Source: a virus | Taxonomy: Duplodnaviria > Heunggongvirae > Uroviricota > Caudoviricetes | IMG/VR virus record: IMGVR_UViG_3300043447_000408 | Location: 64,001 to 75,732 of that record | Reading direction: 5' to 3' (one strand) | DNA: 11,732 nt | Shown: piece after piece, positions 2 through 11,691 of the stretch | How positions within the stretch are numbered: the first letter of the stretch is position 1 | Layout: each line of letters begins with the position of its first letter | Notes under the pieces: generated by a model | The model's input: only the letters and a program-made list of their open reading frames with translations | Told to the model about the DNA's origin: nothing | The model's database searches: none | Made by a program: the position numbers and the translations under genes

Positions 2-139
2 TATGAGATGATGTGTCCTAATATTAAATTCTACGATTTAAAGTCGTGGAAAGATATTGAAGAGACTTACAAAACGGTGTATGAAAAGGGTGGAATATCC
101 GTTATTGTCGAATATCCTGAGTTATATTACGAAGCATAA
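2..139 (+). CDS. 3' end of a gene entering from the left; possibly a short transketolase pyrimidine-binding / alpha-ketoacid dehydrogenase E1 beta-like subunit
   Basis: Open frame from nt 2 reads YEMMCPNIKFYDLKSWKDIEETYKTVYEKGGISVIVEYPELYYEA* (TAA 137-139) and is directly followed by a terminator. The 'MCPNI..L....I...Y......G.S.IVEY..Y' pattern resembles the C-terminus of truncated E1-beta/transketolase-like proteins in sugar clusters (from memory, only 45 aa visible). Confidence 0.45.
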   Translation, partial: YEMMCPNIKFYDLKSWKDIEETYKTVYEKGGISVIVEYPELYYEA

Positions 140-170
140 AAAAAGGGACTAAAAGTCCCTTTTTTATTTT
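138..170. terminator. Bidirectional rho-independent terminator between convergent genes
   Basis: Stem AGGGACT (144-150), loop AAA, stem AGTCCCT (154-160), flanked by an A-tract (138-143) and T-tracts (161-165, 167-170), giving U tails on both strands. It lies between stops at 137-139 (+) and 169-171 (-). Confidence 0.9.
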
Positions 171-945
171 ACTCTCCCCAATGTTTTTTACGTAATTCTT
201 GTAAATCAATTGGTTCTCTTTTCATATGACCTCCTTGATTGAAGTGTGCACCTTGTTTAAGATATCCACCCAATAAGTTTCTTCTCATTCTATTTGAATT
301 GTTTGGTTCAGAACCGTGAACAACGTGTGAGTGTAATAACACTACTTGACCTTTTCTTAAGAAACCTTCAACTTTTTTGAAGTCGTGTCCTTCAGGCATT
401 ACACAAGGTTTACCTCTTTCGTTTCTCCAAAATGTTGGGTTGGTTTTAGTTCTTTCCTCATCAACTTCAATTGGTAAAGTTGGTAATCTGTGTGAACCTT
501 CGTAATTCCATACCGCACCATTCTCAGGGTCGTGGTTATCTAACGCGATTGCTGTGTTAATAATCTCATTGTGTTTACAACCAGTGTAGAATGCGTTTTG
601 ATGCATATCTCTACCTAATTGTCCCGGTGGTTTGAAATAACACCAAGTTTGTAATCCTACTGTTTTACCTTCCATAAGAAACTCACAAGCTTCTAATACT
701 TTAGGATGACAGAATAATTTTTCAATCATTGGTGAAATTTTATGTGGGTACGCAAATGGGTCCCACTCACCCCACTCTTTACCATCTTCAGTTGTAGTTT
801 TAGACCTTTCATTTCTTAATCGGTCCAATTCATCATTAACCGCATCACATTCGTCTTCGGTTAACAATTCCAATACTGTCCAACCTTTGTATCTCCAATC
901 AAATGTCATTTGTTGGATTTCTAATTCTGTTAAATGTTTGAACAT
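169..945 (-). CDS. Phytanoyl-CoA dioxygenase (PhyH) family Fe(II)/2-oxoglutarate oxygenase with H-Q-N motif
   Basis: N-terminal GWTVLELLTEDEC, FKPPG..G..MHQN (H115), GAVWNYEGSH, distal VHGSEPNNSNRMRR (H210, R221): typical PhyH layout. Confidence 0.88.
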   Translation of the reverse strand: MFKHLTELEIQQMTFDWRYKGWTVLELLTEDECDAVNDELDRLRNERSKTTTEDGKEWGEWDPFAYPHKISPMIEKLFCHPKVLEACEFLMEGKTVGLQTWCYFKPPGQLGRDMHQNAFYTGCKHNEIINTAIALDNHDPENGAVWNYEGSHRLPTLPIEVDEERTKTNPTFWRNERGKPCVMPEGHDFKKVEGFLRKGQVVLLHSHVVHGSEPNNSNRMRRNLLGGYLKQGAHFNQGGHMKREPIDLQELRKKHWGE

Positions 946-992
946 AGTTTTCTTTTTGTATAATTTATTTATTTTTTATCTATTAGTAAATG

Positions 993-1397
993 TTACCAAC
1001 TAATTTCCCAATCTTTAAATTCCGCAGCTAAACAATCAATTTTATAATCTTTTCTACCACCTACAATTTCTTGTATTTTGTTTTTAGCGGTATTTCTAAT
1101 ACCGTTCAATCCGTGTGTTAGTTCTAATTGATTACCTTCTTTAATTCCTTTACGATAGTTAGATTCGTTGTGCCAAATATGTAAATTCATCTGAGATAAA
1201 ACAACAATAGCTCTAATAGTTTCGGCGGTAATTTTCCCATCATTGTCATCAAGTAGTAATTGAATGTCGTGTAAAATGTCACTAATTTCTTGACCATATT
1301 CTTCTTTGTGCTCCGTAATAAAAACCTCTTTTAATTGTGATATACTCAACCTATCAACTAATTCAGCTAATGTTGGTAAATATTTTCTTTCACTCAT
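993..1397 (-). CDS. Small helical protein, DUF6165-like
   Basis: TLAELVDRLSISQLKE ... N.HIWHNE..YR ... N.IRN..K..I...GG matches the recalled DUF6165 pattern (xGELxDKxxILxIK ... NxxLWxxExxxR ... NxxRxxxKxxI). ATGA overlap with the upstream gene. Confidence 0.55.
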   Translation of the reverse strand: MSERKYLPTLAELVDRLSISQLKEVFITEHKEEYGQEISDILHDIQLLLDDNDGKITAETIRAIVVLSQMNLHIWHNESNYRKGIKEGNQLELTHGLNGIRNTAKNKIQEIVGGRKDYKIDCLAAEFKDWEISW

Positions 1398-2677
1398 ATT
1401 AAATTCTGTTTGATGTTAAAATATTGATTATGATACTTTTGAAATTCAACAAATGAATCAGGTAATCGATATAATTTATTTATTAGATTTGAATGATTGT
1501 GTTCAACAACTTCTCTCATTGACTTGAACCATTCCATTTTATTTTTAACTGAAATTGTCTTTTTAACACTTTCAATAATTGCTTTCATTCTCTCGTGTGT
1601 TGGTAAACTATCATAATCTTCATCTAAGAATTCAGAAAATGTTTTGTATCCCATTTTCTTCATCATCGCGAGACTATCTTTATTACCCATCACCATCCAA
1701 GGATGTCTACAAGCAATTGGTTTATAAAGTTTTTCACTTAAGAACATCGTTTCGTCACTATCACCACAATGGGCTTCACTTACAACACTAACCCAACTAT
1801 CTAAACAAATCTGTTCATTCAATCTTCTAATGTAATAGTTGTCGTCAAATTCATTATTTGGTTTTTCATATATCAACAATGGTAATGGTTCATATATTTT
1901 ATCAACAACCTCATCTGACATATATTCACCTTCAAATGGGTACTGATGTTTAGGAAAATGATTCATACTAACCAATCCATCTTTTAGAATATCATTGTCG
2001 AACATATAACGATAAAACCAAACTCTGTGAGGTCTTATTCTTTTATTCAAACAAGAAAAACTTTTAATATTCTTTTTGTTCTTTTTCTTGTATTCTAAAT
2101 GAGTATCGAAATCTGGTAGTTTTCCTTCTCTATCAAAATGGTAACAGGTCATCCCGACATCTAATTCAAAATGTGCGTATGGGATTACTTTTAACTTTTC
2201 TTTAATTTTATTTTCAATACACCACTTATCATAAATCTCATCCGCAATCATATTACCGGTGACATATACAATACTTGATGGTGGTACTTTATACTTCTTA
2301 CAATGTGTATGGAAAAAATCCCATAACCATCTTGATTGGTACCCTTCAAAACTTTGGTCTAATAAAAGTAATGCTTTCTTGTTTCTTAAATCACTCAAAT
2401 ATTTTGGGTTAAGATATTCAAACAAACTCTTAACCCTTGATGTGTATCCTGTCCAATCTTCAGGACTGTGATTAACTGCGGCAGGAATAACATAGTTTTC
2501 CACATCGTTATCCAATTTCAAAAATTGTAAAAAGGATTCTTTATGTGTAAACCCAAAATACATATTCGTTGCATTAATCAACGGTGCATATGTAAATCTC
2601 TTTATACCTGACGGATTTACATCAGGACAACTTGTAAAGTTGTGTAAGTTTTCAACATCTTCAAAAACTAATTTCAT
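1394..2677 (-). CDS. Putative GT-B fold glycosyltransferase, GT10 (alpha-1,3-fucosyltransferase)-like C-terminal nucleotide-sugar-binding region
   Basis: 427-aa ORF coupled on both sides. FSCLNKRIRPHRVWFY and VSVVSE...FLSEKLYKPIACRHPWMVMG...GYKTF..DEDYD loosely echo the GT10 motifs (F...N...R..FY; F....EN.....Y.TEK...A....P...G). The ORF is certain; the family is tentative. Confidence 0.45.
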   Translation of the reverse strand: MKLVFEDVENLHNFTSCPDVNPSGIKRFTYAPLINATNMYFGFTHKESFLQFLKLDNDVENYVIPAAVNHSPEDWTGYTSRVKSLFEYLNPKYLSDLRNKKALLLLDQSFEGYQSRWLWDFFHTHCKKYKVPPSSIVYVTGNMIADEIYDKWCIENKIKEKLKVIPYAHFELDVGMTCYHFDREGKLPDFDTHLEYKKKNKKNIKSFSCLNKRIRPHRVWFYRYMFDNDILKDGLVSMNHFPKHQYPFEGEYMSDEVVDKIYEPLPLLIYEKPNNEFDDNYYIRRLNEQICLDSWVSVVSEAHCGDSDETMFLSEKLYKPIACRHPWMVMGNKDSLAMMKKMGYKTFSEFLDEDYDSLPTHERMKAIIESVKKTISVKNKMEWFKSMREVVEHNHSNLINKLYRLPDSFVEFQKYHNQYFNIKQNLI

Positions 2678-4131
2678 TAAATAATATTGGGTTTAACATC
2701 TGAAACGTACTCACCAGGTTCGAAATGTGTTATTGCACCGTCAGTAACTTGAACATTAGGTATTGAATAATCAACTTTGATTGAATCATACCATTCGATT
2801 AGTTCGGGGTCATTAAACGTTGCTCTGAAATCTTTATTTCTTCTAACATCATATTGTTCGTAGAAACTCTTGAAGTCGTGCCATTGTTTGTCTTTATCCA
2901 ATTCTGTTTGGTTGTGACCTCTTTCAACAACTTCAATATAGTCAATCAATCTTTCGATTTGTGCCTTCTCGTGAATACTAAATAAAGGACTCTCTTTATG
3001 TTCAGTATACCAATTCTTTAACTTAAGATGTAACTTAGATTTGATATTATCAGGTAATGATAATGGTGACATAAATGACGGCCATCTTAGGATGTTGAAA
3101 TCAACGTTTGGTCTATTTGGTCCGTACTTCTCTTTCAATACTATCATATCATCTAAGAATTCAGTTATACTGAATAAACAAAGACTATTAATTGTCATCA
3201 TAATGGTTAATGAACGGAACTTAGCGTTCTCAATAAACTTAACCATATTAGCTCTCCAAATGTCATATTTTAGACCATCTCTGATATAGTCAGCGTGAAC
3301 ACCGAATGATTCATTACTTGTGTACAAATCAAATTCTTTAATTGGTAACTCGTGAGAGATACTAATTAATTTAAACAAAGTTGCTTCATTCAATCCAAGA
3401 TTTGAGTTAACTGCAAGTCTTAAGTTTTCAGAAGGATGTTGTTTCATTACATCAATGAAATTCCAAAAGTTACGACTTTGTGATGGTTCACCACCAGTAA
3501 CTCTAATCTCTTGTAAAGTCTTTGATAACTCAGGCCACCATTCTAAGAATGCTTGTACGTATGGGTTATTTTCGTTGTGTTTACCAAATTTTTCAGACCA
3601 AGAACCGTCCGCATAATATGCACCTGCACTACTTGTTTTGAACTTTTGATATGCTCCGTTCTCTTTGATATCTTTTGCCCAAGTTGTACTATAACCTGAG
3701 TTACAATAACTACAAGCAAAATTACAAGTACGGTCAAAACTAACCTCAACAGTTTTTAATAAGATGTCTTCTTCCCAAGGAATTTCTTTAAGTGCAGCAA
3801 TTTCTTCTTCAGTATAGATTAAACTCTTATATACTCTATCAGAAATGTTATCACGACCAATATCTTCAATCTTCCAACAATATGAACATTCAGCAGGTCT
3901 GATACCTGTTAACATCATCTTTCTTGCAATCTTCTTGTGTCGAGTATTATGTAACGCTGAAGGATTTGTTTTAATCTCTTCTAAATCAATAGGGTGTGGT
4001 AAAGGAAGATGACAGGAATTTGTGTATCCGTGTCCTAAATGTAAACTAGCGTTGTACCACTTAGCTGCACAGAAACTTTTACTAATACAGTTTAGATTTT
4101 TATTCCTCCATTCTCTTAGTTCGTCGGACAT
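2677..4131 (-). CDS. Radical SAM enzyme with N-terminal twitch (auxiliary Fe-S) domain, paralog 2
   Basis: CxxxCxxC = CNFACSYC (C136/C140/C143), RVTGGEP motif, N-terminal FCAAKW...G..NSCH...ECSYCW (C21, C40, C82, C85), C-terminal DF..F...Y..RR..D....PEL. Confidence 0.9.
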   Translation of the reverse strand: MSDELREWRNKNLNCISKSFCAAKWYNASLHLGHGYTNSCHLPLPHPIDLEEIKTNPSALHNTRHKKIARKMMLTGIRPAECSYCWKIEDIGRDNISDRVYKSLIYTEEEIAALKEIPWEEDILLKTVEVSFDRTCNFACSYCNSGYSTTWAKDIKENGAYQKFKTSSAGAYYADGSWSEKFGKHNENNPYVQAFLEWWPELSKTLQEIRVTGGEPSQSRNFWNFIDVMKQHPSENLRLAVNSNLGLNEATLFKLISISHELPIKEFDLYTSNESFGVHADYIRDGLKYDIWRANMVKFIENAKFRSLTIMMTINSLCLFSITEFLDDMIVLKEKYGPNRPNVDFNILRWPSFMSPLSLPDNIKSKLHLKLKNWYTEHKESPLFSIHEKAQIERLIDYIEVVERGHNQTELDKDKQWHDFKSFYEQYDVRRNKDFRATFNDPELIEWYDSIKVDYSIPNVQVTDGAITHFEPGEYVSDVKPNII

Positions 4132-4170
4132 ATTTTTGGTTTTTAATTATAATATACAGAAAAAATCTTA
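4132..4170 (-). promoter_or_regulatory. Possible internal sigma70-like promoter ahead of radical SAM paralog 2
   Basis: The only gap (36 nt) between 11691 and 993. The minus strand reads GATTTTTTCTGTATATTATAATTAAAAACCAAAAAT-ATG, with TATAAT at 4146-4151 and an overlapping TATATT, but only a weak -35 (TTTATA at 17 nt). The AT-rich background makes such matches cheap. Confidence 0.3.
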
Positions 4171-4911
4171 TAAAACGAATTTTTCAGGTACTTTTTCCAA
4201 GAAATTATTATTTTTAGATTCATCGAAAATAATTCCGATGTTATTAATTGTATTAAAGTTGTACAGACAAAGAATGTCTTTGTAATTTGGATTAGATATT
4301 AGTTTCTCTCCTTGAGTTTCATAAATTGATTTCGCCACTTTAATATCTGAAGTTCCTCTTACAATTGAAAAATGATATATGTCATATTCTCCGTGATGTC
4401 TGTGTTCCTCTACAGGTGAACCAGGATTAGCACATCCTAAGAATAGTCCGCTGTGTTGGTAGTCGTCAATTAAATTGTTTTTAAATCTTAGTTTATTCGA
4501 GACTTCAAAATTAACATATAAAGTAAATGCATTTCCTTGTCTTGCGATTGAGATTTTAACCGGTCTGTTTAAGTCGGTATGCTTTAATCCGTTGAAAGAT
4601 GCGAAATTAAAATCATCCCAAGTATTATCGTCTCCCTTTGTCCAAAATTCAAATGCAAGAATTTTACTTTCATTATTATAAGTCACACCTATATTTTTAC
4701 CAGGTTTACCAAATAAAGTACAAATGGGGTCTCTTCTATAAAGGTCTAATAATCTAATTTCTGCGGTGATTATGTACGAATCCTCGTAGAGAAAAGTTTT
4801 TATTTCCTCGATGTCAGTTTTGTTGAATTGAGTTACATATTGATTATCGTGGTGAGTATCTAAATCCCACTTATACATTACCCAATAAGGTTCTTTATAC
4901 TTTATTCTCAT
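4168..4911 (-). CDS. Stand-alone LamG / concanavalin A-like jellyroll protein
   Basis: Beta-strand pattern KISIARQGNAFTLYVN, LFLGCANP...EYDIYHFSI, and LCLYNFNTINNIGIIFDESKNNN. These match the domains inserted in the two GT7 genes (FYIGAANP...GYFDKFVVF; MVLYYN...ADLTGTQN). Confidence 0.7.
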   Translation of the reverse strand: MRIKYKEPYWVMYKWDLDTHHDNQYVTQFNKTDIEEIKTFLYEDSYIITAEIRLLDLYRRDPICTLFGKPGKNIGVTYNNESKILAFEFWTKGDDNTWDDFNFASFNGLKHTDLNRPVKISIARQGNAFTLYVNFEVSNKLRFKNNLIDDYQHSGLFLGCANPGSPVEEHRHHGEYDIYHFSIVRGTSDIKVAKSIYETQGEKLISNPNYKDILCLYNFNTINNIGIIFDESKNNNFLEKVPEKFVL

Positions 4912-6313
4912 CTCTGATGTTTTTTATAAATTGAGTTAATTCAGGATAGTATTCTTCGCAATCCATCCCTCTTCTTATTTTATATTCGTCAATAAACTTA
5001 ACAAAATCTTTTTTCTCTTTTTCGAATGAGATATCTGAATTGGAGTCTGTTATGAATATTTCTTTTATTCTTGTTATTTTTTCAATCTCCTTGGTTGAGA
5101 ATCCAACATCTTCGATTGATTGTTGTTCATAGAAATTTAAACTCCTATATGTTGAATAGAATTTCATAAACTTCTCACATCGATTAAAGTATTCTACATC
5201 CAAATAATCTTTCAATACTCTGAACCCTAAAAAGTCAGGATATCTTAGATACGATGTGTCTAATATTAGTGCTGAATTCCAATATCGTTCAGTGTTAAAA
5301 TGTTTAAGTTTTAAATCATAGACTTTTTTAATTAAAGACTCATATGAGAAGATACTGAATATGTTAAACGTCGACATTATGACGACAGTTACTTTAGGGA
5401 GTACTGTTAGAATTTTATCAATGTTACTGAATAGTCTGTCGAATTCCAATCCGTATCTAACATATTCTGCTTGTTTACCATAAGCATCGCAAGACGTGAA
5501 TATGATAACTTCTTTTACTCTTTCTTCACTAATAATCTTTTCTAATTTTACAATTAATTTATCAATCAATTCATCGTTAACTCCAAGATTACTATTGATT
5601 GATAGTTTTAATTGTCGGTTGGGTTCTTCCGTTTCAATGATATTTTCTAATACTCTCCAAGTATCTTTTGATAATAGGGGTTCTCCACCAGTAATTCTAA
5701 ACGTATCTAATGTGGTGTATAATTCAGGCCACCATTCCCAAAATGCTGCAACATAAGGATTATGTTCAGTTTGTTTATATGGTCTGGTTTTATTCTCATC
5801 CATTTGTTGAGTACTATTATAATCGGAGGATAGTTTATATCCACCAAACTGATTAATTTCCTCCATCCATTTAGTTGAATATTCGGGACCACAATATGCA
5901 CATTTGAAATTACAAGTGTTTGAAAAGTTTACCTCAACATACTTTGGATTAAAGTCTGCTCTCCAATGTGACTTTGATATTTCATCAAAATATGGTTCTG
6001 ACCAAGGTTCTGCACTTTTAAAAATTCTATCTGAAAATGAATTAGAATTATCTTCAACATTCCAACAATATCCACACTCCTTTGGTCGTTGACCGTTTAA
6101 CATTTCCTTCCTTGCGTACTTTTTAACATTACTATTATGTAATGCCGTGTAGTTTCTTTCAATCTCCTCTAAAGGTACTTTGTGTGGAGAAGGGTGGTGA
6201 CAAGAATGTGTTGTACCATTATGTAAATGCATTGTCACTTGTGTCCATTTTGCCAAACAGAAACCACAACCAACACCATTTAATTTATCTTTTGTTATGT
6301 TAAAATCTATCAT
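4895..6313 (-). CDS. Radical SAM enzyme with N-terminal twitch (auxiliary Fe-S) domain, paralog 1
   Basis: CNFKCAYC (C134/C138/C141), RITGGEP, N-terminal FCLAKW...G.THSCHH...ECGYCW (C19, C38, C80, C83), C-terminal DF..F..EY..RR..D....PEL. Confidence 0.9.
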   Translation of the reverse strand: MIDFNITKDKLNGVGCGFCLAKWTQVTMHLHNGTTHSCHHPSPHKVPLEEIERNYTALHNSNVKKYARKEMLNGQRPKECGYCWNVEDNSNSFSDRIFKSAEPWSEPYFDEISKSHWRADFNPKYVEVNFSNTCNFKCAYCGPEYSTKWMEEINQFGGYKLSSDYNSTQQMDENKTRPYKQTEHNPYVAAFWEWWPELYTTLDTFRITGGEPLLSKDTWRVLENIIETEEPNRQLKLSINSNLGVNDELIDKLIVKLEKIISEERVKEVIIFTSCDAYGKQAEYVRYGLEFDRLFSNIDKILTVLPKVTVVIMSTFNIFSIFSYESLIKKVYDLKLKHFNTERYWNSALILDTSYLRYPDFLGFRVLKDYLDVEYFNRCEKFMKFYSTYRSLNFYEQQSIEDVGFSTKEIEKITRIKEIFITDSNSDISFEKEKKDFVKFIDEYKIRRGMDCEEYYPELTQFIKNIRDENKV

Positions 6314-7755
6314 TTCATTTTTGTATTAATGAACATAGTATTAGGATACAATGTTTCATCTGTTTCTACAACTTCGGTTACCTCAGTTATTTTGTTAAGA
6401 CCTTCGTCTTTATAGTTAATTTTCTTTTGTTGCATTTCGGTAACAAATCGTTTCTCGTTTCTTGCGGTGGTTTCACCTTTAGCCCATTTACCATTCACAA
6501 AACCTTCATCAATATGTGGTAAACAATAGAATTGACCTTCTTTTCTAAATGGTAAAACGTTTTTAACAATTTCAATATCTTCTTCACCAATGATTGAATC
6601 TTTAACAACCGCCATTGAGCCGTTTACCTTATTAGTGAATCCATCTTCAAAATCATAATGTAAAACCAAATCTTCATCTTCTGTGGTTGTAAACACTTGT
6701 TTAATTTCATTTGGTTTTATGCACTTTTTAAAAATTTTCACCTCACCAATTTTACCTTTATAGTATGTTCTTTGGTGTGGACAATTACCCAAAACAAATG
6801 GTTTTACCGCATCCATTCTAGCCAATTCGTATTTCGCTTCGAAAGGTAATTTTTCTCTAATACCTCTAACGTTTCTCTCCAATTCATCATTGATATAAAG
6901 ATACAGTTTATTTTCCTCTTGTGAGTAAGAAATTGTTACCCAAGTCCATAAATTTTCAAATCGTTTTGCCCAAAAATAATGATGTTGACTATTTCTGTCG
7001 AAAACAACCATAGATACCGCTCTCGAATTATTGAATGAAACACCCCAAGTCCACATACCTTCTTTTCTTAATATTGGGTACTCTAAGAATCTATTTTGTT
7101 GGTCACCAACTAACCAAATAGGTACCACATCTTGTTGTTGTTCCGCATTAAATAATATTGAAATGGTATGGTCTGATGTGAAACAAGAACTTATTTCCCT
7201 ACTCGTCGGTATTTCAACTGCCGATGTTTTTCCGTTAAATTTAGCATACTTTTTACTTTCATATTTTTGGATGATTTTACCAGTGGTTAAACCTTCAAAG
7301 TAACATCTCCAAAATAAGTCATCATCTTCTTGTCCCCAATCCCAATAATCATTTGAATACCCATTAGTTTGATAAGCTTGTTCTTTTGTAAATAAAACAA
7401 CTCCGCCAAAGTATTGGTCGTATCCCAAACCATAATTGTATTTGGACAATCTAGTTGCAATGTGCATCGGATTATCTTCAGGATATGAGTAGTCAGCAAA
7501 CACACCATCTTTATCATATACCAACATATCCACATCGTGCCAAGCAACGTAATCACATCCGTCATTAAACGCGTAATGGGCTGCAATATTTTTCATTGCA
7601 CCTCTATTAAAAAGTTTATCGTCAACCTGATGTCCCACATAAAATTTGTGGTCAATATTTTGACTTGTTAGATACTTTGATAAGTGAGGGATTAATCTTT
7701 CAATGTGTTCCTTTCTATTTCGATAAGGGATACAAATTCCTAATTTGTGACTCAT
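6310..7755 (-). CDS. GT7 (beta-1,4-galactosyltransferase-like) glycosyltransferase with internal LamG domain, paralog B
   Basis: IPYRNR, LFNRGAMKN, HDVD (DxD), QYFGGV, NGYSNDYWDWGQEDDDL. A LamG core spans about aa 160-399, then the GT7 tail follows (GQFYCLPH...RNEKRF...EGLN...FIN). Confidence 0.88.
   Translation of the reverse strand: MSHKLGICIPYRNRKEHIERLIPHLSKYLTSQNIDHKFYVGHQVDDKLFNRGAMKNIAAHYAFNDGCDYVAWHDVDMLVYDKDGVFADYSYPEDNPMHIATRLSKYNYGLGYDQYFGGVVLFTKEQAYQTNGYSNDYWDWGQEDDDLFWRCYFEGLTTGKIIQKYESKKYAKFNGKTSAVEIPTSREISSCFTSDHTISILFNAEQQQDVVPIWLVGDQQNRFLEYPILRKEGMWTWGVSFNNSRAVSMVVFDRNSQHHYFWAKRFENLWTWVTISYSQEENKLYLYINDELERNVRGIREKLPFEAKYELARMDAVKPFVLGNCPHQRTYYKGKIGEVKIFKKCIKPNEIKQVFTTTEDEDLVLHYDFEDGFTNKVNGSMAVVKDSIIGEEDIEIVKNVLPFRKEGQFYCLPHIDEGFVNGKWAKGETTARNEKRFVTEMQQKKINYKDEGLNKITEVTEVVETDETLYPNTMFINTKMK
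6559..7278 (-). other. LamG/ConA-like domain inserted in GT7 paralog B (approximate limits)
   Basis: KFNGKTSAVEIP, TISILF, WTWVTISY...LYLYIND, FVLGN...YKGKIGEVKIF.....NEIKQV, LVLHYDF. Confidence 0.75.
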
Positions 7756-9176
7756 ATTCCAACGTTAATGTGTGTTATGTTATTTTCTACTATTTTTCCA
7801 TAAAGAACAAAATCTAAATCTGATAACCCATCGTTTTCGAGTAGTTCATCGTTTTTTGAAACTTCGTTATAGAATCTTAATTGGTTCCACCTAGTTGCTT
7901 GGTGTTTCCATTTATTTTGATAGAATCCATTTTCTTCGTGTGGTAACGAAATAAATGTGGATTCTCTTCTATGTGGTACTTTTACTTTTCTTGATTTGTT
8001 TAATTCCAAGTCAACAATCTCACAATTGGTTATCATACCATAGTTTTGTGTACCAGTCAAATCAGCCAATCTATACCCATCAATAAATTTAGAATTATAA
8101 TAAAGTACCATATTATAATTTTTACCGAATTCTTTCATAATTCCTTCATTATGATGATTCGAAATTTTATGGATTTCTTCTTCGGTTAATATGTCATTAA
8201 AGACAACAAATTTGTCGAAGTAACCCTTAAAAAAACTTTGTTTCTCTTCTCTTTTTGGGTTTGCTGCACCTATATAAAAATGTTTTTCTTTTGCATATGG
8301 ATGTAACTTACCAAATGTATCGGGTGAACCAATATATTCACCGTCTTGATAAACATTAATGATTCGTTCTGTTGGGTCAATTGTTACACAAATATTGGTT
8401 TGGTAATTCGGTTTAATGTTTGAGTTAACATATAGTGCTTGTTTGTCTTTATCGAAGAAACAAACATTATATCTTGAGAATGAATTATATGAAATTGAAA
8501 AATCGTAACCAGGTATTGAGAATATTGTATAATCATCGGTTTCTTTTTCGTGATTACACGTTAATTCATCAGGGAAGAATGAAACAAAAATTGTTAGTAC
8601 TTGATTTGTATTAATTAAGTTAGGACACTCAACATATGCATCAATACCATTGAATTTTAATTTCTGACCATCAATACCTACATTCTTAATTACCAAGTCA
8701 TCTAATTCAATTTTATTCTTAATACAACGAAGTCTTAAGTCATCATCCTCATATCCCCAACCCCAATACTTGTTTGAATAACCATTAATTTTCTTGAAGT
8801 CTTTCATTGGGAATAGTGTAACTCCTCCGAAATACTCATCAAAAATATCTCTTGGTTTTTCGTCTTTGTTTTCTTTAAATCCTGTCGCCAAATGGACAGG
8901 AAAATCAGAATATGAATAGTCGACGTGAAGTGGTATCATATCTATATCGTGAAATACCACATAATCACAATCAAGTTCCTCAGCATATTTGAATCCGATG
9001 TTTAAAAGCATACCTCTATTGAACAACTTTGCATCGTCTTGATTAACAATGATTAATTCAAAAGGAATCGAATGTCTATTAAGATATTTCGTTATTCTCT
9101 TTTTGAATAATTCAAGTTGTTCCGGTCTGTTTCTATACGGAACTATAACACCAAGTTTTTTACTTTTTTTCGACAT
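7752..9176 (-). CDS. GT7 (beta-1,4-galactosyltransferase-like) glycosyltransferase with internal LamG domain, paralog A
   Basis: VPYRNR, NQ....FNRGMLLNIGF, HDID, EYFGGV, INGYSNKYWGWGYEDDDL. A LamG domain follows, then the GT7 tail (STFISLPH...NQLRF...NDGLSDL...HINVGI). Start moved from the TTG at 9191 in the ORF track to the ATG at 9176 (MSKKSKKLGV). Confidence 0.9.
   Translation of the reverse strand: MSKKSKKLGVIVPYRNRPEQLELFKKRITKYLNRHSIPFELIIVNQDDAKLFNRGMLLNIGFKYAEELDCDYVVFHDIDMIPLHVDYSYSDFPVHLATGFKENKDEKPRDIFDEYFGGVTLFPMKDFKKINGYSNKYWGWGYEDDDLRLRCIKNKIELDDLVIKNVGIDGQKLKFNGIDAYVECPNLINTNQVLTIFVSFFPDELTCNHEKETDDYTIFSIPGYDFSISYNSFSRYNVCFFDKDKQALYVNSNIKPNYQTNICVTIDPTERIINVYQDGEYIGSPDTFGKLHPYAKEKHFYIGAANPKREEKQSFFKGYFDKFVVFNDILTEEEIHKISNHHNEGIMKEFGKNYNMVLYYNSKFIDGYRLADLTGTQNYGMITNCEIVDLELNKSRKVKVPHRRESTFISLPHEENGFYQNKWKHQATRWNQLRFYNEVSKNDELLENDGLSDLDFVLYGKIVENNITHINVGI
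7992..8699 (-). other. LamG/ConA-like domain inserted in GT7 paralog A (approximate limits)
   Basis: LKFNGIDAYVECP, LTIFVSF, ICVTID...INVYQDG, FYIGAANP...FKGYFDKFVVFNDILTEEEI, MVLYYN...ADLTGTQNYG. Confidence 0.8.
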
Positions 9177-9372
9177 CGTTAGACTTAACAAACTTATTAT
9201 GGAATTCAGTTAAGTAATATTGAATTCTATTGCTCCATTCTTCTTTATCCACTTCTTCAAACCAAATGGTTAATGCGTCAAGTGAGTTTGCAATTTTTTC
9301 AAGTGCTTTAACTTTCTTTTTTTCAAGGTCCAACATTTCTTGTTGGTTGTCTTTTTTTGTTGTTTCGCTCAT
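9160..9372 (-). CDS. 70-aa hypothetical helical / coiled-coil microprotein
   Basis: ATGA overlap with the upstream GT stop and a 17-nt overlap with the GT7-A start fill the gap exactly. Amphipathic heptad-like LEKKKVKALEKIANSLDAL. Confidence 0.7.
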   Translation of the reverse strand: MSETTKKDNQQEMLDLEKKKVKALEKIANSLDALTIWFEEVDKEEWSNRIQYYLTEFHNKFVKSNDVEKK

Positions 9373-10226
9373 ATTGATATTATTTGTTTTATTAATTTAT
9401 TCCAATTACGGTATCTTTGATATTCAGGTTGGGTGATTCCTAATTCAAAATAAAAATCCTCTTTAGTTACGTTTATTTTAAATTTAGTTTTTTTCAATTC
9501 ATTGTACATTAATTCATACTCGGTTGAATATGAATAATCTTGTTTTAAATCTGCAACACTTTTAATTCTGTTTATCGATGATGAGTCCCATTTAAAATGA
9601 TGAACCTGAACTGAGTGTGTTTCTATTGGTGCAATTAACGGATGGTTCCATCCCTGCCATCTCCAAGTTGTTTGTCCGTTTATTTTAGCGTAGTGTTGAC
9701 CACTTGTGATTTCAACATAACCTTTCACAACACATATTTTATTAGGACAAGCATTACTCATTGGATATCTAAAAAATCCCGCATTCGGATATTGTTCCCA
9801 AATACTTTCGTCCGATTTTAATTCAACAAAATCACCACCTCTTCCTATTCTGTCAATAAAACCACCTCTAACAATATCCCAATTATTCTTATTACAATCA
9901 GATATTAATAAATTCAAACTATCTTCAGGATATAAATGAAATTCATCAATATCGGCAATCACCCACCAATCGTTTGGGGTTTTTGATTTGACAAAATTGT
10001 AAAGTTGTGTAACTCTTTCCCAATCAAATATTCTATCATATTGTGTTTTAACAATTTTAACATTGTCATAACCTTCAATAATGTCTTGTACTTCTTCGTG
10101 TAATTTTGGTCTTTCGTCTGTATTGTAAACGATGTAGTTTATCTCATCAACATACTTAGAATAATGTTTGATGTGATGCTCAATGAGATTTGTCCCGTGA
10201 CCTATAACTGTTAGTAACCTAATCAT
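9369..10226 (-). CDS. GT-A glycosyltransferase, GT2-like (Glyco_tranf_2_4 type)
   Basis: LIEHHIKHY near the N-terminus, WWVIADIDEF (DxDE), GGFIDR, KICVVK..., GQH, and VHHFKW. Confidence 0.75.
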   Translation of the reverse strand: MIRLLTVIGHGTNLIEHHIKHYSKYVDEINYIVYNTDERPKLHEEVQDIIEGYDNVKIVKTQYDRIFDWERVTQLYNFVKSKTPNDWWVIADIDEFHLYPEDSLNLLISDCNKNNWDIVRGGFIDRIGRGGDFVELKSDESIWEQYPNAGFFRYPMSNACPNKICVVKGYVEITSGQHYAKINGQTTWRWQGWNHPLIAPIETHSVQVHHFKWDSSSINRIKSVADLKQDYSYSTEYELMYNELKKTKFKINVTKEDFYFELGITQPEYQRYRNWNKLIKQIISI

Positions 10227-10951
10227 TTTTTTCGATTTATCAACGTTATCCCGCTTGAGGATGGTTTTGTTGATAATATACGAAAATTAAAAAGATTAAT
10301 CAAGTTCCACTCGGGATTTTCTTGTAGTTCTTTAATGAATTTTGCTGGACCATCGAATCGATAGTGGTCTTTTTTAGAATCCTCAGAAACGATTAAAGTT
10401 TCTTCGTAGTTACTATCTGTGTCGTGTATAAAGATTATACCATTATCAGATAATATTTGTGAATAAAGTTCAAAGTCTTGTTTAACGCCATCATATGAAT
10501 GGTCACCATCAATGAAGAGGACATCTATTTTAATATCCTGTCTAATAAAAAAATCATAATACGCGTCGACAGAAGTCGATTTAATAAACCTCGGATAAAA
10601 ATTCTTACGATAGAATGACTCTTCATTATCCAAATCATTAGGCCCACCGACACCGTTACAAGCGTCAACAACGTAAGTAACACCAATGTCACCCCAATTA
10701 TAGTCTCCATTTCCTTCAAATATATTTTGTTTATGTAAATCAATTCTAGCTTGTGTCATAATACGTGGAATGAATCCACCACCTGAACCAATACAAACAC
10801 AATTCTTGGCTCTCATATGTTGAATGATTGAATAAACAAGAATTCCATCACCTATGTGCAAATCAGTTGCCCCGTGTGTCCATCGATATAGTACAGGGGT
10901 ATCATCATTGTTTGTGATGAATTTTTTAATATAGTCGTTGTTACTTATCAT
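10223..10951 (-). CDS. Class I SAM-dependent methyltransferase, Methyltransf_24-like (probable O-methyltransferase)
   Basis: VCIGSGGG (motif I), YVVDA, IDVLFIDGDHSYDGVKQDFELY...L..NGIIFIHDT. Start moved from the TTG at 10960 to the ATG at 10951, which forms an ATGA overlap with the upstream stop. Confidence 0.85.
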   Translation of the reverse strand: MISNNDYIKKFITNNDDTPVLYRWTHGATDLHIGDGILVYSIIQHMRAKNCVCIGSGGGFIPRIMTQARIDLHKQNIFEGNGDYNWGDIGVTYVVDACNGVGGPNDLDNEESFYRKNFYPRFIKSTSVDAYYDFFIRQDIKIDVLFIDGDHSYDGVKQDFELYSQILSDNGIIFIHDTDSNYEETLIVSEDSKKDHYRFDGPAKFIKELQENPEWNLINLFNFRILSTKPSSSGITLINRKK

Positions 10952-11691
10952 TTCATCCAATCAGGCCAAAGTGGTTTTGGTGTGTATCTTTTACTGACAC
11001 TTATCATTTTATCTTTTAACATTTCATATAATGTTAAATCTTGTTGTATTTTAGTTTCAGATAGTTTTGCACTAATTCTAATAGATATTCCTTCACCGGC
11101 ACCATTAACTTCTTTATTTAAACCAACATCACAAAATTCTTTTGCTATTTGTAATTTTTCATAGTAATGATAGAATCTTTCTTTATTAAATCCATTTTTA
11201 TTTATGACCAAAAAATATTCCCACATTGTTTCATATTCAGTAAAATTAGGGCATAATTTATTGGCATAACCATAGTACTTGTTCCATTCATCTCTATCAA
11301 TACTAATTAATTCTTTAATAAATCTTTTCTTTGATTTATGATTTAGTAATGTATCAATATAACTTATTCCTTCACTAAATTCATACGTTTTTAATTCTTT
11401 CAAAAATGAAAAGTCTGTAACGTGTGTATCAGCATCGAGTAGTATTGAAATGTTGTGTTTGTCTAAGATATATTTTGGTAAAATCATCTTATCCGCATAC
11501 GATTTAAATGTTCTATCGTATTGGATTATATGTAAAAATGATGATGAATATTTTGTTGTAAATCTTTCGGGGGTATCTGTTAATATGTAACAATGATACC
11601 CCTCGTTAAGTATATTTCGTATTTTATCAAATGTACCATTAAAATAGTACTCTTCACCAAAACAAAAAATTCCAAAACCTATGTTATTCAT
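10948..11691 (-). CDS. Putative GT-A fold glycosyltransferase (GT6/GT8-like N-terminus)
   Basis: IGFGIFCFGEEY...GYHCYILTDTP resembles the GT6 N-terminal strands (human ABO IGLTVFAIKKY...GHRVHYYVFTDQP), and a DxD motif LLDADT sits at the expected position. The ORF is certain; the family is tentative. Confidence 0.45.
   Translation of the reverse strand: MNNIGFGIFCFGEEYYFNGTFDKIRNILNEGYHCYILTDTPERFTTKYSSSFLHIIQYDRTFKSYADKMILPKYILDKHNISILLDADTHVTDFSFLKELKTYEFSEGISYIDTLLNHKSKKRFIKELISIDRDEWNKYYGYANKLCPNFTEYETMWEYFLVINKNGFNKERFYHYYEKLQIAKEFCDVGLNKEVNGAGEGISIRISAKLSETKIQQDLTLYEMLKDKMISVSKRYTPKPLWPDWMK

Follow-up and report, generated by a model that had tools for sequence, protein, structure and literature searches.

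What do the clustered sugar-transferase and radical-enzyme genes at the end of the viral contig IMGVR_UViG_3300043447_000408 build, and on which acceptor? The DNA analyzed here (the window) is the terminal 11.7 kb of this single 75.7-kb contig. It holds 12 open reading frames (ORFs), numbered g12 to g1 with increasing coordinate and all on the minus strand between positions 169 and 11691. Nine of the 11 gene junctions overlap, by 1-17 nt, as expected from an initial annotation of the sequence that described 12 co-oriented, mostly overlapping genes. The cassette is very probably a phage-encoded cytoplasmic system that builds and tailors a glycan. More specifically, the window would hold the enzyme core of a conserved glycan cassette, located in the hypervariable region (host recognition) where a large T4-like aquatic phage encodes its fibres, and fibre proteins would be the likeliest acceptor, a reading for and against which we see the chances as evenly balanced.

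The radical S-adenosylmethionine (SAM) enzymes of the cassette belong to a family found in at least 372 viral stretches, of which the best 80 loci were analyzed together with four loci fetched with g5, all from IMG/VR. In nearly all of these approximately 80 loci, the order g2-g3-g4-g5-g6-g7-g8-g9 is kept on one strand, with protein identities down to 35-55%. This core comprises a methyltransferase, a GT2_4-type glycosyltransferase, a 70-aa helical protein, two GT7 glycosyltransferases with a LamG domain, a radical SAM enzyme, a stand-alone LamG protein and a second radical SAM enzyme. The remaining genes g1 (21 of about 80 loci), g10, g11 and g12 are accessory. The eight-gene core is a unit, and the strong co-occurrence of its genes answers the question of synteny across contigs that the annotation had raised.

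Two transferases of the core, g5 (7752..9176) and g6 (6310..7755), are GT7 (beta4GalT-like) enzymes that share 30% identity. Scores with Glyco_transf_7N and Glyco_transf_7C were 69.8 and 68.8 bits for g5 and 61.1 and 65.8 bits for g6 (Pfam gathering cut-offs 27 and 23), and both proteins also exceeded the cut-off of Laminin_G_3 (45.2 and 30.0 bits, respectively; cut-off 27.6). The single sequence of g5 matched beta4GalT7 (PDB 3lw6) with an E-value of 1e-28, and a profile of the g5/g6 family matched beta4GalT1 over the N-terminal approximately 150 residues with an E-value of 1.4e-50. In GT7 enzymes, the WGWGxEDDD motif carries the catalytic base and DxD is the metal/donor motif. The corresponding motifs are HDID (8940-8951) and WGWGYEDDD (8739-8765) in g5, and HDVD (7528-7539) and WDWGQEDDD (7318-7344) in g6. 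Residues H76, D77, D79, W138, G141 and D144 are invariant in 30 members of the family, and the same motifs are present in beta4GalT7 and beta4GalT1.

In both proteins, the GT7 motifs up to WGWGxEDDD are followed by about 230 residues of LamG (approximately 7992-8684 in g5 and 6556-7278 in g6) and then by a last segment of 50 residues that weakly resembles the end of beta4GalT1. In g5, GT7-like sequence resumes at LPHE (7935-7946); this segment carries an invariant histidine (H413 in g5 numbering), and residues 425-474 align to residues 235-283 of beta4GalT1, weakly (independent E-value 5.1). Because GT7-type stretches align on both sides of LamG, the domain is, as judged from these alignments, an interruption of the catalytic domain in g5 and g6. 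Such a LamG-inserted GT7 architecture is unprecedented. The animal beta-1,4-galactosyltransferases of CAZy family GT7 (beta4GalT7, 3lw6/4irp; beta4GalT1, 2ae7/1o0r) have HDxD and WGWGxEDDD in common with g5 and g6, whereas the phage enzymes are soluble, lack a signal anchor and have their catalytic domain split by the LamG domain. The polypeptide GalNAc-transferases (GT27) likewise combine a GT-A catalytic domain with a carbohydrate-binding-type module, an analogy that does not extend to homology beyond the GT-A fold. In GT27, the acceptor, a glycan linked to protein, is positioned by a ricin-type lectin module at the C-terminus and not by a LamG domain within the catalytic domain.

The second conserved element is the order radical SAM-LamG-radical SAM, which was retained in 81 loci. 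Both g7 (4895..6313) and g9 (2677..4131) match the NCBIfam model NF033640 (N_Twi_rSAM; 315.2 and 284.4 bits, respectively, cut-off 170), which bears out the earlier assignment of two twitch radical SAM enzymes. The two N-terminal-twitch proteins share 36% identity and carry the motifs CNFKCAYC (5891-5914, g7) and CNFACSYC (3703-3726, g9). In the family, C134, C138 and C141 of the CxxxCxxC motif are invariant, as are the N-terminal C19, C38, C80 and C83. The four invariant N-terminal cysteines of g7 could hold an auxiliary cluster. The N_Twi_rSAM family has no characterized member, sequence searches found no solved relative, and our literature search found no paper on an N-terminal twitch radical SAM enzyme. 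PHROGs offered only generic radical SAM and methyltransferase labels.

Between the two radical SAM genes lies g8 (4168..4911), which encodes a stand-alone LamG protein of 247 aa and begins within the last 17 nt of g7. The protein is paralogous to the insert of the GT7 enzymes: comparison with the LamG insert of the GT7 family by hhalign gave a probability of 98.1% and an E-value of 9.2e-14 over 190 columns. No Pfam match was obtained with g8 itself, and two of 24 family members match weakly. Together with the Laminin_G_3 matches of g5 and g6, this agrees with the earlier mention of LamG modules in the locus.

Complex prediction of g7 with g8 gave a median ipSAE of 0.79 over three runs, and the best of three controls scored 0.00. 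At least 79% of the contacts agreed between runs, and the partner pLDDT (predicted local distance difference test) was at least 90. In a benchmark, 58 of 80 solved complexes but 2 of 110 mismatched pairs attained the mark that we use for ipSAE, counts that hold only roughly here, where our own alignments were used. The prediction supports binding of g8 by g7. The putative docking surface on g7 is formed by residues 322-326, 372-389 and 407 (372-389 at 5147-5200), and the contacting residues on g8 are predicted to be 17-26 and 201-237 (201-237 at 4201-4311). The C-terminal segment 201-237 of g8 is conserved, and the same segment trails the LamG core in the GT7 enzymes. From the modeled complex, LamG would be a module common to both types of enzyme, built into the transferases and provided as a protein of its own to one or more of the radical SAM enzymes. 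The pairing of a radical SAM enzyme with a LamG protein is unprecedented. Compared to the N_Twi_rSAM family at large, the phage cassette is distinguished by this pairing and by the GT7 enzymes, a combination that was not seen in the fetched bacterial loci except for two contigs from metagenome-assembled genomes (MAGs).

Three further proteins resemble glycosyltransferases. The window copy of g3 (9369..10226) matches Glyco_tranf_2_4 weakly (E-value 4e-4), and 23 of 24 members of its family match this model, the best with 4.8e-8. The invariant DxDE motif of this GT2_4-type, GT-A glycosyltransferase-like protein is at 9942-9953. The accessory protein g1 (10948..11691; 247 aa) has no Pfam match. 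Its AlphaFold2 model (pLDDT 86.6) was matched by Foldseek to BoGT6a (4ayj, E-value 8e-7), as well as to GTA/GTB and the UGGT catalytic domain, which are GT6 and GT24 enzymes. With the invariant D86-A87-D88 in its family alignment (DAD at 11428-11436), g1 is regarded as a GT-A-fold, GT6/GT8/GT24-like protein. For g10 (1394..2677), sequence searches of Pfam and the PDB returned no match. Its AlphaFold2 model (pLDDT 88.9) retrieved OtsA, MshA and PimA with E-values of 1e-5 to 1e-3, and GT1 and fucosyltransferase clusters of the AlphaFold Database, so that it is described as a GT-B-fold glycosyltransferase-like member of an unnamed, mainly viral family. Residues E315-K316 are invariant in this family ('SEK' at 1730-1738). 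With two GT7 enzymes, one GT2_4 protein, one GT-A fold and one GT-B fold, the count of five glycosyltransferase-like enzymes in the initial annotation stands. Searches for solved structures by sequence gave nothing useful for g1, g2, g3, g8, g10 or the radical SAM family.

The g10 family is accessory and occurs in multiple copies across loci. Six long paralogs of about 720 aa carry a fused NAD-dependent sugar epimerase/dehydratase domain (L019:15151-17322, L020:17941-20064, L022:15532-17655, L025:17233-19392, L027:12568-14778 and L036:17193-19364). As judged from their domain composition, a long member of this family joins nucleotide-sugar modification and transfer in one protein.

The first core gene, g2 (10223..10951), was found in 73 loci and encodes a class I SAM-dependent methyltransferase (Methyltransf_24, E-value 3.3e-12, 47.6 bits, cut-off 26.3), so that the methyltransferase noted earlier is confirmed at the family level. 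The core gene g4 (9160..9372) encodes a conserved helical protein of 70 aa that occurs in 77 loci with 28-67% identity. E17, A23, E25, I27, W46, R49, Y53 and L54 are invariant in its family alignment. A role of g4 as a peptide acceptor was considered and rejected. Because the family has no invariant Ser, Thr or Asn, this small protein is more likely an adaptor than an acceptor. By tblastn, g4 is better conserved than the flanking enzymes, with up to 79% identity where g5 shows 42%; a central stretch of about 40 residues is fixed and the tails vary freely.

The accessory g12 (169..945; 8 loci) was expected from the annotation to be an iron/2-oxoglutarate (Fe/2OG) oxygenase. Membership of the Pfam PhyH family was confirmed (E-value 1.6e-22, 81.3 bits, cut-off 22), but the putative iron motif reads HQN (595-603) where HxD/E is expected; the distal motif is HGSEPN (301-318). 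We take the HQN column to be the position of the triad carboxylate from the 'HQD' motif of PhyH proteins rather than from a tool alignment. All eight homologs from the loci have HQN, as do 118 of 120 homologs from the database; of the other two, one has HQD and one HQE. A homolog search with g12 returned only close relatives, with at least 68% identity. Protein g12 may be a non-canonical or inactive Fe/2OG enzyme. Accessory gene g11 (993..1397; 134 aa) was found in 20 loci. Neither g4 nor g11 belongs to a recognizable family, g11 giving only sub-threshold matches to domains of unknown function.

Where would such enzymes act? A hydropathy scan of all window proteins revealed no convincing membrane segment, as was noted earlier. 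The one stretch above threshold, residues 301-322 of g7, is taken to belong to the buried core of the protein and not to span a membrane. In four related, fragmentary phage records (about 664 kb), no member of the Wzx, Wzy, ABC-2 permease, Bac_transf or WecA-type families was found, PF02397, PF00953, PF01943, PF04932 and PF01061 giving no match. Matches to ABC_tran (PF00005) were rejected as transporters, being P-loop fragments in ORFs of about 150 aa. In these records, the missing flippase, polymerase, exporter and initiating transferase uphold the earlier view that this is not a standard O-antigen or capsule locus, and no ordinary Wzy- or ABC-dependent lipopolysaccharide (LPS) locus was found in the flanks.

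A lack of phage export genes would also be expected if, on the cytoplasmic side of the membrane, the enzymes altered lipid-linked precursors of the host's O-chain or capsule, the product being exported by a host transporter. Such remodeling of the host envelope, e.g., for blocking superinfection or preventing re-adsorption of progeny to debris, is the main competing reading but seems unlikely to us. An initiating transferase and a lipid-carrier enzyme are absent. The core is kept at 35-55% identity across presumably different hosts and O-chains, each of whose intermediates it would have to recognize. Moreover, a lytic jumbo phage would spend more than 10 kb of strict core plus a large variable tail on the surface of its host.

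The neighborhood of the cassette bears on this point. Genes for a 1172-aa protein (L002:33-3551; 28% Ser+Thr, 14% Gly), for two LamG proteins (L002:3553-5109) and for a protein of the Gly_rich_2 family (L002:5282-6940) lie upstream in the same phage. In 22 of 33 distinct arrangements (those with at least 4 kb of upstream sequence), one of the seven nearest upstream genes codes on the same strand for a protein that is 400 aa or longer and consists to at least 20% of Ser+Thr, a content shown by only 7% of the large proteins across these loci. One upstream family contains the Peptidase_S74 fibre chaperone domain, and the upstream LamG proteins are homologous to the GT7 LamG insert (probability 96.9%). 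Linkage of glycosyltransferase genes to structural genes, by which virion glycosylation may be recognized, is indeed seen here, with fibre-like genes directly upstream in most lineages. The LamG modules of the cassette and the upstream LamG and fibre proteins indicate a phage-encoded acceptor, which again speaks against an envelope target.

Upstream LamG proteins of 230-280 aa (cluster c8, L001-L037) and a 326-aa family (c57) end in a conserved Arg/Lys-Phe/Tyr-Gly-Leu sequence. This C-terminus may be an assembly or attachment signal of putative fibre-associated proteins.

On the 3' side of g9, the gene content varies between lineages and includes arrays of N_Twi_rSAM genes (up to 7-8 copies), g10-like GT-B proteins and nucleoside diphosphate (NDP)-sugar genes. 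The sugar genes encode NAD epimerase/dehydratases, a DegT-type aminotransferase, UDP-glucose dehydrogenase and transketolase-like proteins; in the source phage, such genes form the operon that converges on the cassette. Inspection of the flanks, which had been proposed with the annotation, thus revealed both NDP-sugar enzymes and fibre-like genes.

Virion fibre or LamG proteins fit best as the acceptor, given that the cassette stays next to fibre genes, has modules of a type that binds proteins or glycans and is not accompanied by lipid-carrier enzymes; to this assignment we give an even chance at best. The enzymes might cooperate as follows. The soluble GT2_4 protein g3 and the GT7 enzymes g5 and g6, with the accessory GT-A protein g1 and GT-B protein g10, would assemble a sugar chain from nucleotide sugars, which the neighboring epimerase/dehydratase, aminotransferase, dehydrogenase and transketolase-like genes would supply or alter. 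The LamG domain inside each GT7 catalytic domain would hold the acceptor, and the separate LamG protein g8 would dock onto radical SAM enzyme g7. The radical SAM enzymes could then edit the same bound glycan by oxygen-independent chemistry, e.g., oxidation, epimerization, deoxygenation or C-methylation. Methyltransferase g2, and PhyH-like g12 where present, would decorate it further. The acceptor in this scheme would be the Ser/Thr/Gly-rich fibre and LamG proteins encoded just upstream. The most specific version, in which LamG tethers the GT7 and radical SAM enzymes to one protein-bound fibre glycan that is diversified through C-H chemistry by radical SAM arrays (two here, up to 7-8 elsewhere), is put forward tentatively and on balance is doubtful.

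The bacterial relatives of the radical SAM family provide a further view of its function. Outside phages, N_Twi_rSAM is concentrated in Bdellovibrionota MAGs, where the gene, often in tandem arrays of up to 8, is found with GT1 and GT2 glycosyltransferases, an ABC-2 permease and ATPase, a carbamoyltransferase and a SPASM radical SAM enzyme. These loci also hold epimerases and g10-like proteins. Radical SAM arrays, glycosyltransferases, epimerases and g10-like proteins are common to these ABC-dependent loci and the phage cassette. In contrast, the ABC-2 permease/ATPase, GT1/GT2 enzymes and carbamoyltransferase belong to the bacterial loci, which lack GT7-LamG, g3, g4 and g8. As far as gene neighborhoods indicate, the bacterial context ties the orphan radical SAM family to glycans independently of the phage cassette. 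It is also a point in favor of an action on the host envelope, since the glycans of ABC-dependent loci are completed by soluble or peripheral enzymes and then exported.

GT7-LamG, g3, g4 and g8 were not found in the fetched bacterial loci, except in two MAG contigs; within the sampled loci, this shows that the complete cassette is viral. The two contigs, L086 (248 kb, from a 'Flavobacteriaceae' MAG) and L102 (23 kb, from a 'Pelagibacterales' MAG), carry the full phage core in phage order with phage-type neighbors. They are probably mis-binned phage contigs, and their binning could hint at the identity of the hosts. In three Bdellovibrionota loci (L115, L125 and L130), N_Twi_rSAM directly adjoins flagellin genes (Flagellin_N/C). 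This adjacency hints at a role in tailoring of flagellin glycans, which would be a protein-linked precedent for the family.

Among cultured phages, the only radical SAM match was in the Ralstonia jumbo phage RsoM2USA (40% identity), with neighbors that are all annotated as 'hypothetical'. In this phage (L085, 217-219 kb), an unannotated family of about 316 aa (c110) has members on either side of the gene. The same family flanks radical SAM genes in bacterial loci too, and is a second conserved partner, distinct from LamG.

A short C-terminal sequence raises another possibility for the product. A Lys/Asn-x-x-Leu/Ile-Ile tail recurs on unrelated accessory enzymes, whereas about 2% would be expected from composition. 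In the window, it is present in g10 (KQNLI, 1394-1411) and g9, which ends with KPNII (2677-2694), and further sites are located at 39.5-49 kb and 60.0-61.8 kb of the contig. The tail was found in 40 of 81 members of the g10 family, seven of nine epimerase-oxygenase fusions (c25), 16 of 34 and 7 of 13 members of families c9 and c20, respectively, and 15 of 65 g9-type radical SAM enzymes. It is nearly absent in the core (g7-type 1/76, GT7 2/170, methyltransferase 0/73). As far as its distribution can tell, the tail looks like a shared docking or targeting tag.

Many enzymes encoded in the upstream island have this tail in common with g10 and, less clearly, with g9, so that the cassette might be part of a larger island at 39-64 kb of the contig that tailors a soluble peptide or small molecule, e.g., a secreted or packaged peptide that becomes glycosylated or a free, aminoglycoside-type glycoside. 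The combination of twitch radical SAM enzymes, a DegT aminotransferase, a methyltransferase and, in the bacterial relatives, a carbamoyltransferase does resemble aminoglycoside-type pathways, and a similar trio in a cyanophage has been read as 'antibiotic synthesis genes' (PMC12801897). We nevertheless regard such a product as improbable: the core enzymes (GT7, methyltransferase, g3, g4 and g7) lack the tag, no conserved precursor peptide or scaffold gene is present in the core, and the upstream island is missing from most loci that carry the core.

In T-even phages, sugars are placed on modified bases of phage DNA, and a glycan on DNA is a third candidate product. The related records contain matches to the Gp23 capsid protein of T4-like phages, and phage glycosyltransferases that place several sugars on DNA are known, with metagenomic enzymes as an example (Pyle et al., 2024, as cited in PMC12619734). 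Hypermodification of DNA by the cassette is highly improbable in our view. The sole gene of the Thymidylat_synt family, present in one of three records, scores as a normal thymidylate synthase (314 bits, full length), and no DNA-binding domain was found in the window proteins. The lectin-type GT7 insert, the free LamG protein and the adjoining fibre genes also fit poorly with a DNA acceptor.

Several points weigh against fibre proteins as the acceptor and against the proposed scheme. Phage fibres are commonly rich in Ser, Thr and Gly, and hypervariable islands of T4-like phages adjoin fibre genes anyway, which makes the argument from gene neighborhood weak. One lineage (L049, L051, L052, L065 and L067) has divergent genes for small membrane proteins upstream instead of fibres. 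The bacterial radical SAM enzymes occur in pathways for exported polysaccharides, which fits a lipid-linked acceptor equally well. The four phage records searched for export machinery are fragments (CheckV 23-65%), so that missing genes are no proof. Where g7 is predicted to contact g8, its residues are on average less conserved than those of the whole protein (0.55 vs. 0.72), which we read as neutral. Finally, a protein search of cultured phages gave nothing for GT7-LamG.

The source phage is a large T4-like aquatic phage, probably of several hundred kb, since two contigs of 115 and 160 kb in IMG/VR have these genes as well, with protein identities of 94-100%, and reach past the end of the contig, and related records match Gp23-type capsid genes. 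The contig itself has a G+C content of 32% and a CheckV completeness of 23%, and megablast of the window against cultured phages gave no match. Within the cassette, intergenic sequence is confined to the junctions g9/g8 (36 nt) and g12/g11 (47 nt). The start of g5 is probably the ATG at 9176, and g2 likely starts with the ATG at 10951, which overlaps the g1 stop as ATGA. A terminator-like bidirectional hairpin at 139..165, assigned to neither strand, has a 12-bp stem between A and T runs and separates g12 from the convergent NDP-sugar operon. The latter ends at about 139, at this shared hairpin. Apart from the hairpin, a scan for sigma-70 promoters and terminators did not exceed chance level. 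The T4 late-promoter motif TATAAATA has five sites, none of which is positioned to drive the cassette genes.

The present locus resembles the 'host recognition cluster' of pelagimyophages, a large hypervariable region of T4-like aquatic phages with tail fibres, many glycosyltransferases, sugar genes and radical SAM gene cassettes whose presence varies among closely related phages (Zaragoza-Solas et al., 2020; PMC7029224). Those genes were ascribed to modification of the host O-chain, and this published reading of the glycosyltransferases favors an envelope target. The likeness concerns the type of region. The initial annotation called the system undescribed. In view of that earlier mention of glycosyltransferase and radical SAM cassettes, this is right only in part; the conserved core was not dissected there, nor were the GT7-LamG architecture and the radical SAM family. 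Other papers mention phage glycosyltransferases generically (PMC12619734, PMC12801897), and glycosylation of the capsid and tail tube of mycobacteriophages has been described (Freeman et al., 2023, as cited in PMC12619734).

The mycobacteriophage systems, chlorovirus PBCV-1 and Mimivirus have in common with the phage cassette soluble viral glycosyltransferases, a methyltransferase and nucleotide-sugar enzymes near structural genes, without host export. They differ in enzyme families, and their virion glycan has been demonstrated, whereas the one proposed here is predicted from genes. The capsid glycan enzymes of PBCV-1 and the fibril glycosylation clusters of Mimivirus are examples of virus-encoded protein glycosylation. 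We know of no radical SAM enzyme or LamG-inserted GT7 enzyme in any of these three systems.

Giant viruses of algae and amoebae and a few mycobacteriophages are established cases of virus-encoded glycosylation; to our knowledge, the large T4-like phages that dominate lakes and oceans are not among them. The cassette is widespread and, in a presumed host-range region, combines a strict core with a hypervariable tail. Through it, a radical SAM family that had been an orphan acquires a functional setting and a predicted partner protein. It also provides a way to find out if the virion or the host is decorated by the 'LPS genes' of marine phages, a question that dates back to their first sighting in cyanophage and pelagiphage genomes. 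If the most specific version of the scheme holds, the sugar coat of the fibre would be a fast-evolving determinant of host range or anti-defence in abundant aquatic jumbo phages.

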